Shown one piece after another: positions 16,301 to 23,695 of a DNA stretch of 26,445 bases; the first letter of the stretch is position 1, and every line of letters begins with the position of its first letter. The translations under genes were made by a program, and so were the position numbers. A model generated the notes under the pieces. The model saw only the letters and a program-made list of their open reading frames with translations. It did no database searches and was not told the DNA's origin. This stretch comes from a virus: UHGV virus genome UHGV-0139945, one strand, 5' to 3'.

Positions 16301-16400
16301 AATGGCTCCTTTAACTAAGTTTGATTAGATATTAATTACCAATCTATCTTTGGTCAATAAAAACTAAGATTGCTTAGCTTGATTGACTACTGGTGTGTAA
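16301..16400. promoter_or_regulatory. Divergent cro/cI promoter-operator region
   Basis: Palindromic sites CTAAGTTTGATTAG (16316-16329) and CTAAGATTGCTTAG (16364-16377, perfect CTAAG-N4-CTTAG); AT-rich; no SD before the cI ATG. Confidence 0.5.
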
Positions 16401-17027
16401 ATGGAAACTGTCGGACAACGAATAAAATCGCTTAGGCGAATCACCAGAACCTCACAAAAAGAGCTTGGGAAGTTTTGTGGGGTCAGTGATGTCGCAGTTG
16501 GGTATTGGGAAAAGGATGTAAACGTCCCAGGAGGGGAGTCTCTTTCCAAACTAGCAAAATTCTTCAATACATCAATTGATTACATACTTTTTGGCACTGA
16601 GTTTGAGGGAAACTTAATAACTAAGATGCGAAAAGTTCCCGTGATATCGTGGGTGCAGGCAGGATTATTCACAGAATCAAAGCCTGAAGATGTCTTGCAT
16701 AATGCCGAAAAATGGGTGGAAACGTCTCTCCGCATCAGCGATAACTCGTTTGCCCTTGAAGTAAAGGGAGACTCAATGACAAATCCTAATGGACTGCCCA
16801 CGATTCCTGAGGGCGCAACGGTCATCGTTGATCCAGACATTGAGCCAATTCATGGAAAGATTGTAGTTGCACGAATAGATGGGACCAACGAGGCCACGGT
16901 CAAAAAACTGGTTGTAGACGGTCCGCAAAAATTTCTTGTCCCGCTAAATCCCCGTTATCCGAACATCGCCATCAATGGTAACTGCGTCATTATTGGTGTG
17001 GTTAAAGGCGTTCAATACGAGCTCTGA
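16401..17027 (+). CDS. CI-type prophage repressor (HTH_XRE + S24 LexA-like peptidase), 208 aa
   Basis: N-terminal HTH (QKELGKFCGVSDVAVGYWEKDVNVPGGESLSKLAKFF) and C-terminal S24 domain with GDSM serine and a downstream lysine (TVKKL). Confidence 0.9.
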   Translation: METVGQRIKSLRRITRTSQKELGKFCGVSDVAVGYWEKDVNVPGGESLSKLAKFFNTSIDYILFGTEFEGNLITKMRKVPVISWVQAGLFTESKPEDVLHNAEKWVETSLRISDNSFALEVKGDSMTNPNGLPTIPEGATVIVDPDIEPIHGKIVVARIDGTNEATVKKLVVDGPQKFLVPLNPRYPNIAINGNCVIIGVVKGVQYEL

Positions 17028-17079
17028 TCTAAGCTAATCTACCTTCGACACCAAGCTAAGAAAAGTTTGGTGTTTTTCC

Positions 17080-17108
17080 TTGACGATAAAACTAAGTTAA
17101 GTTAGATT
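17080..17108 (+). promoter_or_regulatory. pL-like early promoter overlapped by an operator
   Basis: -35 TTGACG (17080-17085), 17-bp spacer, -10 TAGATT (17103-17108); operator-like CTAAGTTAAGTTAG (17092-17105) overlaps spacer and -10. Confidence 0.45.
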
Positions 17109-18088
17109 TTCATCTATCAACAGCGAACAGGCAGGACGCCCACGAAGTAGCCGCCGGTGGCGTATGAATGACCGGATGATTCGCTGACAGATGTCTTCGG
17201 GAGGGGTAACAGAGAAGCGGTTTGATTACCCGCAACTCGTAGTCAAATTCCTATAGCTGGTGGCGATACCCAAGCCAGGAATACCGAAAACCAGCAGGAG
17301 TGTTAAGGATAAGGGCTAATCACTCCCTTAGCACCCCGCCCGAAGATATCTGAAGAACATGGCGAAAGCCTACAGCGTTGAAGGCGATTTTCTCGGTTTG
17401 CGCGCTAAACAATAGCGGGGGTGAAACCGGGGCGGAGAAGCAGAATCCGCGATGTCGGGACTTGATACTTCCGGCCATACCAACAAGCCGAATGATCGCG
17501 TAACGGTCCTTTGCATCTGCCCCGGCGAGGTGGCGCCGCCGGACCGGGGTAGATGAATCGAACACAACATGAAAGCGCATTCCATCTTCATCCGTCGTGG
17601 GGACTGGTTTGTAACTGTAGGGGTGCGCTTCCAGTTGTGAGCGGCAATATTCACAACCGTTGTATGGCACATGCAGCGTTAGCAGCCCGGATGGTTCCCT
17701 TGAAGTTCCATGCGCTATCCGGATAACTGGAATGTGCAAGCCAGGTGTTTCAGGCACGACGTGCGCCCCACCAGCGCGGCGAAAAGGTGTGACGCCCGGG
17801 AATAGTCCGGGACACAACGATGAGGGCATTGACGAGCAAGGCACAGAGTCTGGTTCGATTCCAGACGCCAGGATAGTTCTATATCTGGTGATGGGCAGGG
17901 AAAAGGTCCGTTCGATTCGGACACCGGCAGTGCTCTCTTCGTTGTGGTAATTGCGGCTATGCGCACGTGACGAGCCAAACCCGTTCAATGAATGCGTTTC
18001 CGGGCAGTGTACGTCGTCGGTTATGGCTTAACCCGGCAGGTGGAGGCACCACCGCCACAACCTAGTTAACTGTGCTGTGTGTAGTCTT

Positions 18089-18158
18089 GGCGGTTATCCA
18101 GTTTTCCACTATCCAAAGGAGGAAGAGGATAACGTTCTGATGGATAACCGCCCTTTTT
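18089..18158 (+). terminator. Large hairpin with T-tract (terminator-like) upstream of the early-left operon
   Basis: Perfect 12-bp inverted repeat GGCGGTTATCCA (18089-18100) / TGGATAACCGCC (18141-18152) followed by CTTTTT; about 40-nt loop with nested TATCC...GGATA pairing. Confidence 0.4.
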
Positions 18159-18297
18159 ACACAATACACAAGAGCATCACCGGGCGACGGGCTCATTACC
18201 CAATCCACCCGGGCGGCTTCTCAACCGCAGGTGCTCTTCTGTGTTGTGTACGGAGAAATTCCCGGCGGTGGCAGCCGCCTTTCGAGAGGGTAAAACC

Positions 18298-18669
18298 ATG
18301 AGTAATGATCGCATGACAGTCGTGCCCGATTTCCTGGGCGAACTGGACGCCGGCGTATTCATGAACAAGATTGCGGCGGCTCTTAATACCACCGCGCTCG
18401 GCGTTCTGAACAACGGCAACAAAGGCAAGGTAGTCCTTACCTTTGATTTTGAGCGAATGGGCAACTCTGTTGAAGAGAAGCGCGTCAAGATTAAGCACAA
18501 GCTGAACTACAGCACCCCAACGCCCCGCGGCAAAGCGTCGGAAGAGGACACCACCGAAACACCAATGTGGGTTAACAAAGGCGGCAAGCTCACTATCCTG
18601 CAGGAGGATCAGGGGCAACTCTTCGGTATCACCGGTACGGTGGACGGAAAGCTTAAAGCGGCTCAGTGA
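18298..18669 (+). CDS. Hypothetical early protein (YfdP-like by size and position), 123 aa
   Basis: ATG at 18298 preceded by GAGAGGG; first gene of a YfdP/YfdQ/YfdR-like trio (recollection of E. coli CPS-53). Confidence 0.55.
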   Translation: MSNDRMTVVPDFLGELDAGVFMNKIAAALNTTALGVLNNGNKGKVVLTFDFERMGNSVEEKRVKIKHKLNYSTPTPRGKASEEDTTETPMWVNKGGKLTILQEDQGQLFGITGTVDGKLKAAQ

Positions 18670-22311: not shown

Positions 22312-22511
22312 GCCTCGATTGTGTTCCCATCTCAACTTATTGCAAAGAGACTGGCGAAACCCCTGATGCCATAAATAAGCGCATCCAGCGCGGCGTATGG
22401 CGTGAAGGGGTACAGGTGCTAAAGGTCGAAGGCGTTAAGGAAAGATGGATAGATCTTAGTGAGGTTGCAAAATGGGCTCGACAAAATCGCCTAAACTCCC
22501 GCGCGGCGTAA
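22293..22511 (+). CDS. Excisionase (Xis-like DNA-binding protein), 72 aa
   Basis: Small basic protein just upstream of int and overlapping it by 40 nt; winged-helix-like DAINKRIQRGVWREGVQVLKVEGVKERWIDLSEVAKW; ATG at 22305 is an alternative start. Confidence 0.65.
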   Translation: MEKSMLSLDCVPISTYCKETGETPDAINKRIQRGVWREGVQVLKVEGVKERWIDLSEVAKWARQNRLNSRAA

Positions 22512-23638
22512 CCATCAGGAAACATAGCAACGGAGAAACTATCAATATTACTTTTACATATAAGGGAGTTAAGTGCCGTGAACCCCTTTCTAATCTGGAA
22601 GTTTCTTCGAAAAACATTAAATATGCTGAGCGAACACTCGGAGAAATTCATAACAAAATCGAAAGAGGAACGTTTGTTTATGCAGAATACTTCCCCCGTT
22701 CTACCCGGTTAAAAATCTTTGGGAATGCTGCCTCCGGCAAAACGGTGAAAATGTATCTAGATGAATATCTTGTGATTTGCGAAACGAGGAAGTTATCCCC
22801 TTCAACGATCGGCGGCTACAAAAAATGCCGTAGCGCATTGTCATCGCTTCACGTTTTTCCCGCAAGTGAGTTAACGCCGGCTGCATTGAAGGCATGGATC
22901 CAAGATCAGAAAACGACCTTGAAGACCATCCGAAACCAACTTTCTTTCCTGCGCTCTGCAATGGATGAAGCGGTAACAGATGGTATTCTCCAGATTAACC
23001 CTGTTTCACTAGTAACAGCCTCACGTTACCAGAGTGACAAATCAGTGTCAGAAAGTAGTTATGTGGTTGACCCGCTATCACCAGCCGAAGTACATGCTTT
23101 GCTCACAGCTGCTGGCAATAAACAATGGGAGAACCTCTTTCGATTCGCCATCCAAACTGGCCTGCGTAGTTCTGAGCTGTGTGCTCTTCGTTGGCGTGAT
23201 ATCGATTTTGTAGGGAAGACAGCCCACGTTCAGAATGCCACCGTAGTTGGCGTAATCAAAGGGACCAAAACAAAAGCTGGAACACGGAAGGTTGAACTAA
23301 CTGACGAAGCAATGCTTGCGTTAGTTAGTCAGAAACCGTTCACTTTTATGAAAGATGATACGATCTTCGAAGATCCAAAAAGTAATAAAGCATGGGCAAG
23401 TGCTGATGCAATAAGAAAAAAAGCGTGGGTACCAACCTTACGAAAGGCAGGCATCCGCTATCGTAATCCATACCAAACCCGGCACACTTTTGCTACCCGT
23501 CACATTAGCCAAGGTGCCAATCTTTTTTGGTTAGCCACACAAATGGGGCATAAAGGACCAGAGATGCTTTTCCGTCACTACGGCTCATATCTGAAGGAAT
23601 ATGATGGACAAACAAGCCTGAAGAAGATAACAATATAA
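22472..23638 (+). CDS. int: Tyrosine recombinase / phage integrase (lambda Int-like), 388 aa
   Basis: Arm-binding-like N-terminus and C-terminal catalytic residues (TRHTFATRH, LATQMGHKGPEMLFRHYGSY); GC falls sharply immediately downstream. Confidence 0.9.
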   Translation: MGSTKSPKLPRGVTIRKHSNGETINITFTYKGVKCREPLSNLEVSSKNIKYAERTLGEIHNKIERGTFVYAEYFPRSTRLKIFGNAASGKTVKMYLDEYLVICETRKLSPSTIGGYKKCRSALSSLHVFPASELTPAALKAWIQDQKTTLKTIRNQLSFLRSAMDEAVTDGILQINPVSLVTASRYQSDKSVSESSYVVDPLSPAEVHALLTAAGNKQWENLFRFAIQTGLRSSELCALRWRDIDFVGKTAHVQNATVVGVIKGTKTKAGTRKVELTDEAMLALVSQKPFTFMKDDTIFEDPKSNKAWASADAIRKKAWVPTLRKAGIRYRNPYQTRHTFATRHISQGANLFWLATQMGHKGPEMLFRHYGSYLKEYDGQTSLKKITI

Positions 23639-23695
23639 TCCATGTCTGAACTATTGGCCACAATTTGTGGCCATTTCATGGAACAAGGTACAAAC

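Follow-up and report, generated by a model that had tools for sequence, protein, structure and literature searches.

A tRNA-like RNA with two T-arms in the mosaic early leader of temperate phages

Introduction

Transfer RNA (tRNA)-like RNAs that do not decode include the tRNA-like domain of transfer-messenger RNA (tmRNA) and the viral tRNAs (vtRNAs) of gammaherpesviruses, the TMER RNAs, which are linked to stem-loops. Phages and prophages carry further structured RNAs: GOLLD and ROOL are ornate RNAs of unknown function that often lie next to tRNAs or contain them, and the lambdoid prophage Qin has a noncoding RNA (ncRNA), DicF, that is embedded in the repressor-controlled early dicB operon and produced by processing. 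YrlA, a bacterial Y RNA associated with Rsr/Ro60, is a tRNA-like ncRNA whose long terminal stem encloses first a T-arm, next an acceptor-like hairpin and last a D-like region (PMC4201824). In phage HK022, the putL RNA starts at position +3 of the transcript, folds into a two-stem V of about 70 nucleotides (nt) and antiterminates as RNA alone (PMC9378689). Here we describe cassette F, a tRNA-like RNA with two T-arms in the early leader of a temperate phage (UHGV virus genome UHGV-0139945), and the array of RNA modules in which it lies; we refer to the whole stretch of 26,445 nt analysed as the window.

Results

Two T-arm hairpins belong to a covarying four-helix RNA

A first-pass annotation, made from the letters of the sequence, had pointed out two hairpins with the tRNA T-loop sequence in the region from 17109 to 18088. 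Both are present on the plus strand exactly where it had placed them, TCTGG-TTCGATT-CCAGA at 17849-17865 and GTCCG-TTCGATT-CGGAC at 17906-17922. When we scanned both strands of the 26,445-base window for a T-arm pattern (5-base-pair (bp) stem, G53-C61 closing pair, loop TTCRANN), these two hairpins were the sole matches on either strand. The pattern is expected by chance 0.12 times on average, as estimated from 500 dinucleotide-preserving shuffles, and at least two matches arose in 1 of the 500. Folding, which the annotation had suggested as a check, was run on 17780-17965 and gave a domain closed by a long stem with a minimum free energy z-score of -3.56. The annotation had been unable to fold the hairpins into a full cloverleaf; ARAGORN found no tRNA or tmRNA gene in the window.

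Homologues were collected through the adjacent sb37 gene in 65 species genomes and 80 viral contigs, from named phages and by searching with a conserved 14-mer. The T-arm domain recurs in related prophages with compensatory changes, and the resulting alignment holds 46 distinct copies, with sources in Klebsiella, Citrobacter, Enterobacter, Erwinia, Izhakiella, Buttiauxella, Yersinia and Ewingella. F is also found in the named phages Edwardsiella EPP-1, Salmonella 118970_sal3, F1055 and SPN1S/SPC32H, Citrobacter phiNP and Stx2a-converting phages. Helices were called with RNAalifold, which recovered four of them (P1 to P4) from the 46 copies, and pairs were then counted with the structure fixed. 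Standard pairs occupied 95.6% of pair cells, compared with 40-56% when the partners were slid by 1-3 columns, and 14 pairs showed compensatory changes, compared with 4-8 after sliding; in 500 column shuffles no observed pair measure was ever reached. P1, counted over 20 pairs, was paired in 98.8% of cells and had compensatory changes at four pairs. We conclude that the plus strand is the RNA strand, because G-U pairs are fixed at helix positions and the F covariance model scores 172 bits on the plus strand versus 18.5 on the minus strand. Elsewhere in the window this model gives 19.8 bits, through stem similarity only, on a long hairpin of the late region (4997-5066, minus strand, GGCAUUACAGCAGGCAUU...AGUGCCUGCGAUAAUGCC), which is probably an unrelated terminator or processing hairpin.

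F is a four-way junction closed by a 19-bp stem, with two T-arm hairpins and two invariant GG strands, AGCAAGGCA and AUGGGCAGGGAAAAG. Two invariant pairs, C17833-G17926 and G17834-C17925, lengthen P1 to 21 bp, and two bases connect P4 to this extended helix. The AGCAAGGCA strand fits the pattern A14-R15-...-G18-G19-...-A21, which we take to be the consensus of the tRNA D-loop. Both T-loops keep G53-C61, U54, U55, C56 and A58 across the 46 homologues, apart from one U55 and one U54 exception in T-loop 1. Position 57 (R57) alternates between G and A, a tRNA-like pattern, and these exceptions aside it is the only position at which the P2 loop varies. P3 changes in length and loop, and its pairs occur as CG/UA/AU, AU/CG/GC/UA and CG/GC. 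Taken together, F would form a tRNA-shaped junction in which P1 corresponds to the acceptor stem and P4 to the T-arm, and a permuted second T-arm/acceptor-like unit replaces the anticodon arm. P3 would occupy the acceptor-stem place of a circularly permuted tRNA, as in tRNA the 3' strand of the acceptor likewise follows the T stem, and each T-loop would dock on one GG strand in the style of the tRNA elbow.

Two further elements in the annotation stood in part. The boxA-like TGCTCTCTTCG is indeed at 17931-17941, but it belongs to the 3' strand of the 19-bp helix P1; a boxA requires a UGCUCUUUAACAA-type single strand that NusB/NusE can reach, whereas TGCTCTCTTCG has a pairing partner in 98.8% of cells and changes in concert with the 5' strand of the helix. 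The hairpin CCCGG-GAATAGT-CCGGG exists, but at 17795-17811, one base away from the 17796-17812 given for it, and it is part of the neighbouring module E, outside the T-arm RNA. We also considered a hammerhead ribozyme, the core of which is resembled by UUGACGAG...GAAA, and rejected it by inspection since the helices are out of register and C3 is replaced.

The covariation also bears on whether the hairpins might be functionless, the decaying remnants of one or more phage tRNA genes or of a protein gene; a decayed gene had been among the candidates of the annotation. Relatives do have phage tRNA genes at this location, in some variants T-arm 1 is similar to its counterpart in the adjacent phage tRNA-Arg, and F probably descends from tRNA sequence. 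Decay, however, is contradicted by compensatory substitutions that keep all four helices across Enterobacterales, by the parts foreign to tRNA (closing stem and junction strands) being the most conserved, and by the retention of full length in unrelated phage backbones. Matches to protein families are absent from the open reading frames (ORFs) over the region, and the length classes of F (127, 131, 134 and 136-138 nt) are not all mutually in frame. We regard decay as highly improbable. A tRNA fragment of the attP type was rejected as well, F lying 4.5 kb from the integrase gene and in mid-operon.

The leader is a mosaic of RNA modules

The annotation had treated the leader of about 1 kb as a single element. 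It consists instead of about nine separately conserved RNA modules, each independently present or absent (Table 1), which we delimited over 17109-18297 by comparison with all fetched loci (L numbers) using BLAST and nhmmer. Modules A to H2 come and go as whole units, always colinear and in the same orientation, in the gap between cI and sb37. The fullest set seen is that of the window and an identical viral contig; common sets in relatives are A-H2 or A-F-H1-H2 only, and the distance from cI to sb37 in relatives runs from about 0.25 to 1.9 kb. The leader is predicted to be almost wholly base-paired. Each of B, C, E, G, H1 and H2 has several predicted pairs with compensatory changes, and D has one; covariation is densest in module C. 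In module E several hairpins covary, and the strands AAUGUGCAAGCCAG and GGUGUGAC are conserved. The window, Stx2a_1447 and SPC32H all have E immediately ahead of F; Kosakonia and Phytobacter prophages carry E without F. Deposited records contain short 'hypothetical protein' coding sequences on both strands over modules A, E and F (118970_sal3, locus L003, 2090-2809; F1055; several Escherichia phages), which are probably gene-caller artefacts over structured RNA.

Table 1. Cassette F, the other leader modules and the flanking features, with positions in the window
Feature	Position	Strand	Basis and remarks
Cassette F, 134-nt double-T-arm tRNA-like RNA	17813-17946	+	folding and covariation
F helix P1, 5' strand CACAACGAUGAGGGCAUUG	17813-17831	+	19 bp, pairs with 17928-17946
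F helix P1, 3' strand CAGUGCUCUCUUCGUUGUG, includes TGCTCTCTTCG	17928-17946	+	paired, covarying
F invariant single strand AGCAAGGCA	17835-17847	+	invariant alignment columns; no D stem
F helix P2, T-arm-like hairpin 1	17848-17866	+	6-bp stem, loop UUCGAUU; 3 pairs compensatory
F helix P3, variable hairpin	17867-17890	+	adjoins P2 without linker; all pairs covary
F conserved single strand AUGGGCAGGGAAAAG (invariant U-GGGCA)	17891-17905	+	alignment; candidate T-loop partner
F helix P4, T-arm-like hairpin 2	17906-17922	+	5-bp stem, loop UUCGAUU; 99.1% of cells paired; 3 pairs compensatory
Module A, 66-nt promoter-proximal element	17121-17186	+	near-invariant sequence, one covarying 5-bp hairpin
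Module B, optional structured RNA	17188-17352	+	long closing stem unlike the CACAAC stems; 5 compensatory pairs, 18 distinct copies
Module C, optional 208-nt multi-hairpin RNA	17353-17560	+	20 of 44 predicted pairs compensatory, 14 distinct copies
Cassette D, 77-nt RNA	17563-17639	+	closing stem CACAACAUGAAAGCGCA / UGCGCUUCCAGUUGUG; one compensatory pair
Module E, structured RNA of about 160 nt including CCCGG-GAAUAGU-CCGGG	17655-17812	+	9 compensatory pairs, 30 distinct copies
Module G, optional structured RNA	17947-18072	+	5 compensatory pairs, 31 distinct copies
Module H1	18073-18158	+	single strand GCUGUGUGUAGUCUU, hairpin 18089-18152, U5; 8 compensatory pairs
Cassette H2, three-way junction closed by CACAAU...GUUGUG	18160-18248	+	13 compensatory pairs, 78 distinct copies
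cro-like gene	16300-16091	-	divergent from cI
LexA-type cI repressor gene	16401-17027	+	divergent from cro-like gene
Intrinsic terminator of the cI-like gene	17047-17074	+	11-bp stem, then T run; separates cI transcription from leader
Early-left (PL-type) sigma-70 promoter TTGACG-17-TAGATT	17080-17108	+	sequence
Operator-like CTAAGTTAAGTTAG	17092-17105		overlaps promoter spacer and -10
Sb37/YfdP homologue, first protein gene of operon	18298-18669	+	phrog_204, E 1.6e-41

Modules A, H1 and H2

Module A starts about 12 nt past the -10 element and is found behind heteroimmune early promoters; the unrelated first genes that it precedes number more than 25. We found it in 34% of E. coli genomes (1,837 of 5,426), in more than 120 IMG/VR contigs and in phages ST64B, SfII, SfIV, SfV, ZF40, mEp460, mEp237 and others, and its core is also found in T5-like Providencia phages. 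It was never annotated, has no Rfam match and shows no similarity to the HK022 nun/cI/cro region. We regard it as a candidate promoter-proximal regulatory RNA, with a possible part in antitermination or ligand sensing.

Module H1 contains the hairpin that had been reported near 18089-18158; its stem spans 18089-18152, and U5 follows at 18154-18158. In shape H1 resembles an Hfq-type small RNA or a terminator. Its match to Rfam DicF (RF00039) reaches 16.5 bits against a gathering threshold of 48, and the likeness is confined to the terminator hairpin; H1 and H2 together fold with a z-score of -5.8. In locus L205 a tRNA begins 3 nt past an H1-like U-run, and H1 may therefore not end the transcript.

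The same hairpin figured in the suggestion of the annotation that the T-arm element might be a processive antiterminator like HK022 put, which would allow read-through of the 18089-18158 hairpin and its U-run. The leader does have a terminator-like hairpin with U5 between promoter and first gene, an N-like gene is missing, and in HK022 the RNA alone suffices (PMC9378689). F does not conform to this model, however. Whereas putL is a two-stem RNA of about 70 nt at +3, F lies about 700 nt into the transcript and forms a four-way junction of 134 nt; F is optional and has no sequence similarity to the HK022 nun/cI/cro region. Moreover, many leaders that keep H1 are devoid of F, and F occurs without a following H1 in the arrangements A-F-H2 and cI-A-F-sb37. 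We therefore consider a put-like role of F very unlikely; if any module is put-like and directed at the polymerase, the near-universal, promoter-proximal module A is the better candidate.

Cassette H2 immediately precedes the ribosome-binding site of sb37 and is carried, unannotated, by 2,522 of 5,426 complete E. coli genomes (46%). In most copies the tip of its inner hairpin (18188-18201) reads CGGGCUCAUAACCC, which is identical to a 14-nt stretch of the E. coli tRNA-fMet anticodon stem-loop and includes the three G-C pairs of the initiator tRNA; we verified the tRNA sequence across the 5,426 E. coli genomes. The exact 13-mer is present in 52 of the 78 distinct H2 copies and GGGYYCAUWMCCC in 71 of them, the window copy having CUCAUUA. 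The CUCAU loop of H2 is complementary to AUGAG at the sb37 start. H2 could be a translational operator, a mimic related to the P-site or to an initiation factor, or a decoy for initiator-tRNA nucleases such as VapC. An ORF at 18077-18301 (plus strand) ends in ATGA overlapping the sb37 start, an arrangement that resembles translational coupling. It is probably no gene, because it crosses H1 and H2, its frame is lost in variants with indels of 21-25 nt and it has no PHROG match. In K-12, the CPS-53 gap upstream of yfdP is free of these modules.

A shared closing stem and linkage with tRNAs

The closing stems of D, F and H2 follow one pattern, CACAAC-(3-4 covarying pairs)-AGAGCA on one side and UGCUCU-...-GUUGUG on the other. 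In relatives the same stem surrounds about a dozen unrelated interiors, forming cassettes of about 77-154 nt. We found such cassettes in L005, L016, L024, L025, L031, L036, L038, L039, L050, L072, L079 and L229; the same stem encloses different interiors in L005, L070, L075, L079 and L229. Breakpoints of the mosaic coincide with the ends of the stem, and the F model matches D weakly, via the common stem.

Conserved arms of about 19 bp around unrelated interiors, in cassettes gained and lost as units, are also what mobile DNA akin to miniature inverted-repeat transposable elements would display, with CACAAC...GTTGTG as terminal inverted repeats. Several features of the cassettes disagree with such an origin. 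F is present as a single copy in each of 79 E. coli genomes and never scattered, the order and orientation of cassettes within the leader are fixed, and no target-site duplications are evident at the borders of F, D and H2. In addition, the G-U pairs fixed in the arms would be mismatches in DNA repeats, and the interior helices covary as RNA. A mobile-element origin is extremely improbable.

Genuine tRNAs accompany these modules in several relatives. The epsilon15-like Salmonella phages SPN1S/SPC32H carry E and then F in an ORF-free gap of 700 nt; next comes a genuine tRNA-Arg(UCU) that overlaps F by 3 nt, followed by a hairpin like H1 and lastly by an intrinsic terminator. Upstream of this E-F-tRNA cluster in SPC32H no consensus promoter could be confirmed, and we do not claim an independent transcription unit. 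In L205 the cI-like gene is followed by an H1-like hairpin, tRNA-Arg(UCU), F, a third T-arm-like hairpin and an unrelated first gene, and L056 has a tRNA-Ile within the leader. An element in L079 (2388-2513) matches the tRNA model with 40 bits and has normal acceptor, D and T arms and an insert of about 50 nt. In the counterpart of this element in L229 (reverse strand, about 2000-2200) a hairpin at the position of the anticodon arm is capped by UGAA, without a 7-nt anticodon loop, and its loop is not conserved. We read the L079 and L229 elements as non-decoding tRNA-like RNAs between two cassettes. A ribozyme of the hepatitis delta virus-like/theta type, as found beside tRNAs, was rejected for F, which lies upstream of the tRNA in SPC32H and downstream of it in L205, with no consistent relation.

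Phage setting of the leader

The window represents a ST64B/phiNP/SfV-type temperate phage. As the annotation had it, a sigma-70 promoter overlapped by an operator follows cI. The operator-like CTAAGTTAAGTTAG matches two CTAAG-N4-(C/A)TTAG sites that can be read in the gap between cI and cro (16315-16328 and 16364-16377); because the half-site pattern is the same, we assign the promoter as the repressor-controlled early-left promoter. The same promoter and operator precede the leader in relatives. The first convincing gene does start at 18298, and the description of an ORF-poor leader without an N-like gene is borne out: the four ORFs scanned within 17109-18297 gave no PHROG match, and no N-like gene is among the window genes. 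Downstream of sb37 lie a DUF2303/YfdQ gene, a 5'-nucleotidase-like gene and, further on, the integrase gene; the rightward arm has cII-like, Rha/antirepressor, replication, methylase, Q-antiterminator and terminase genes. The integrase gene (22472-23638) is followed on the plus strand by genes for an AAA_15/AAA_21 ATPase (23642-25429) and a D12 methyltransferase (25509-26390), the latter matching PD-Lambda-5_B (E 5e-123). The prophage appears to carry these two as a PD-lambda-5 anti-phage defence pair.

Discussion

A possible role of F in trans

We tentatively propose, with somewhat less than even confidence, that F acts in trans as a non-decoding tRNA mimic; it would engage a factor recognizing the T-arm or elbow. 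We favour this reading because the T-arms exceed chance, the structure covaries, F combines tRNA-like parts with tRNA neighbours and behaves as a unit, and DicF provides a precedent. The closing stem would isolate the cassette during co-transcriptional folding and might also be a double-strand (RNase III-type) processing site from which the cassette is released. Early in lytic growth, F would then occupy or titrate a host, rival-phage or defence factor, candidates being a tRNA-targeting nuclease, a tRNA-modifying or tRNA-processing enzyme, or an exoribonuclease complex as with Y RNAs. Other tRNA parts or small RNAs may come from the neighbouring cassettes, which would make the array a mix-and-match one.

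Several observations weigh against such a mimic. F has neither a free acceptor end nor an anticodon loop, and many known tRNA-binding factors would therefore reject it. The docking of T-loops on GG strands lies outside the reach of covariation, because the bases involved are invariant, and 20 of the 46 sequences lack pairing at the two outermost positions of the T-arm 1 stem. The RNase III role of the closing stem was deduced solely from its length and conservation. F is carried by 79 of the 5,426 E. coli genomes, in one copy each and always unannotated, and is absent from many sb37-type leaders; since it is optional, any function it has must be accessory. Finally, the YrlA covariance model, if among the 4,227 Rfam 15 families searched, gave no match to F at E <= 10, and a Pfam scan of 20 window proteins turned up no Ro/TROVE protein.

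It is possible, though on balance unlikely, that the cassettes work in cis only. As compact folding units they would shield an untranslated leader of about 1.2 kb from Rho and nucleases and provide punctuation for RNases III, E and P, giving the early-left mRNA defined, stable 5' ends, and the T-loops would serve compaction or the recruitment of tRNA-processing enzymes. Such a function would fit modules that all share one orientation between promoter and first gene, the almost fully base-paired leader that is predicted, and a conserved closing stem common to cassettes with unrelated interiors. It would also fit the finding that 2,522 of 5,426 E. coli genomes have H2 immediately before the ribosome-binding site of sb37, and the real tRNAs, natural signals for RNase P/E processing, at equivalent positions in relatives. 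Mere spacer would not, however, preserve from genus to genus two exact T-loops, both invariant GG strands and a strand like the D-loop. Nor is F confined to the cI-sb37 setting: it also lies in the ORF-free gap of SPC32H, by a tRNA and before an intrinsic terminator, and ahead of an unrelated first gene in L205. Moreover, many relatives without F, C, D, E and G keep the same downstream genes, which argues that these modules are not needed for expression of the operon.

A wider form of the trans proposal, which we hold to be quite doubtful, takes the early-left leader in this large group of enterobacterial temperate phages as an array of cassettes that share a stem of about 20 bp and each show a different piece of tRNA. 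F would show two elbows and H2 the initiator anticodon stem-loop, and relatives would add whole tRNA-like RNAs and real tRNAs; the cassettes, set free early in infection, would act as decoys or sponges against tRNA-targeting defence nucleases and toxins, or reprogramme the initiation of translation. An interdigitated double T-loop, which would make F a receptor for tRNA elbows, seems to us less likely than a mimic, given that each loop belongs to a complete T-arm of the tRNA type and that two invariant GG strands are available.

F and its neighbours are conserved structured RNAs without an Rfam family or an annotation in the phage and E. coli records examined, and they reside in prophages of medical relevance, including Stx2a-converting (O157:H7), Shigella serotype-converting SfII/SfIV/SfV, Salmonella ST64B and Klebsiella prophages. 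If F does act as a mimic in trans, it would be a phage-borne, Ro-independent addition to the few bacterial tRNA-like ncRNAs and a handle on the dealings of temperate phages with tRNA-centred host functions and defences. An array of tRNA pieces serving as decoys would be an RNA counterpart of protein anti-defence islands. Even with a role in cis alone, the leader would clearly illustrate modular RNA evolution, its cassettes being swapped at a common stem, and would account for the recurrent 'empty' gap of 0.25-1.9 kb into which gene callers put spurious hypothetical proteins.

Comparison with known systems

A search of the whole window against Rfam 15 found no family at gathering scores. At E <= 10, the leader yielded only the weak DicF-like match on H1 and two matches at chance level, and 17805-17955 matched no family, tRNA included. 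The same tRNA tools did detect the neighbouring tRNAs in L150, L205, L056 and L079. F, A, H2 and the shared-stem cassettes have no Rfam family and are not annotated in 50,697 phage records or 5,426 E. coli genomes. Full-text literature searches, which included exact sequence strings, returned no description of any of them; the Pas small RNA preprint deals with other prophage small RNAs.

Compared with tRNA itself, F meets the T-arm consensus twice (5-bp stem, G53-C61, U54-U55-C56-R57-A58-N-N) and shares the outline of a four-way junction and, in AGCAAGGCA, a D-loop-like strand. It differs in having no cloverleaf by ARAGORN or RF00005, no D stem, no 7-nt anticodon loop and no 7-bp acceptor stem with a free CCA end; its terminal helix of 19-21 bp is continuous with the flanking RNA.

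Among phage RNAs, DicF is approached by H1, which carries a UUGGCGGU...CAGUUUU...CCGCCCUUUUU hairpin, but the single-stranded 5' part of H1 differs, its score stays at 16.5 bits against 48, and F itself has no similarity to DicF. HK022 put is comparable as RNA in the early leader of an N-less lambdoid phage, and differs in position, size and fold, with no sequence in common with F. The structured-RNA leader of about 1 kb recalls GOLLD and ROOL, but it has no Rfam match, is a mosaic of independent modules rather than one large RNA and is found in Enterobacterales hosts. Repeated, related helices of about 20 bp that bracket RNAs within one transcript are also known as the RNase III stems of rRNA operons and T7 early RNA; the stems here differ in closing cassettes of 77-134 nt with conserved interiors, and their cleavage is putative. 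Our searches yielded no earlier example of an array in which a common stem frames the cassettes.

To our knowledge, E. coli generally lacks Rsr, and F, unlike YrlA, is also present in E. coli prophages; its neighbours are cI, sb37 and the DUF2303 gene of an early leader, and not rsr. F further differs from YrlA in its two T-arms, in having no D stem and in a closing stem common to sibling cassettes that are not tRNA-like. The two nevertheless share a size class of about 100-135 nt, a long terminal stem, the order P1, P2, P3 and GGGCA strand, and a permuted, non-decoding character, and YrlA-type RNAs, like F, occur in phages. The tests run here did not place F in the YrlA family; it is a tRNA-like ncRNA that in layout comes nearest to YrlA.

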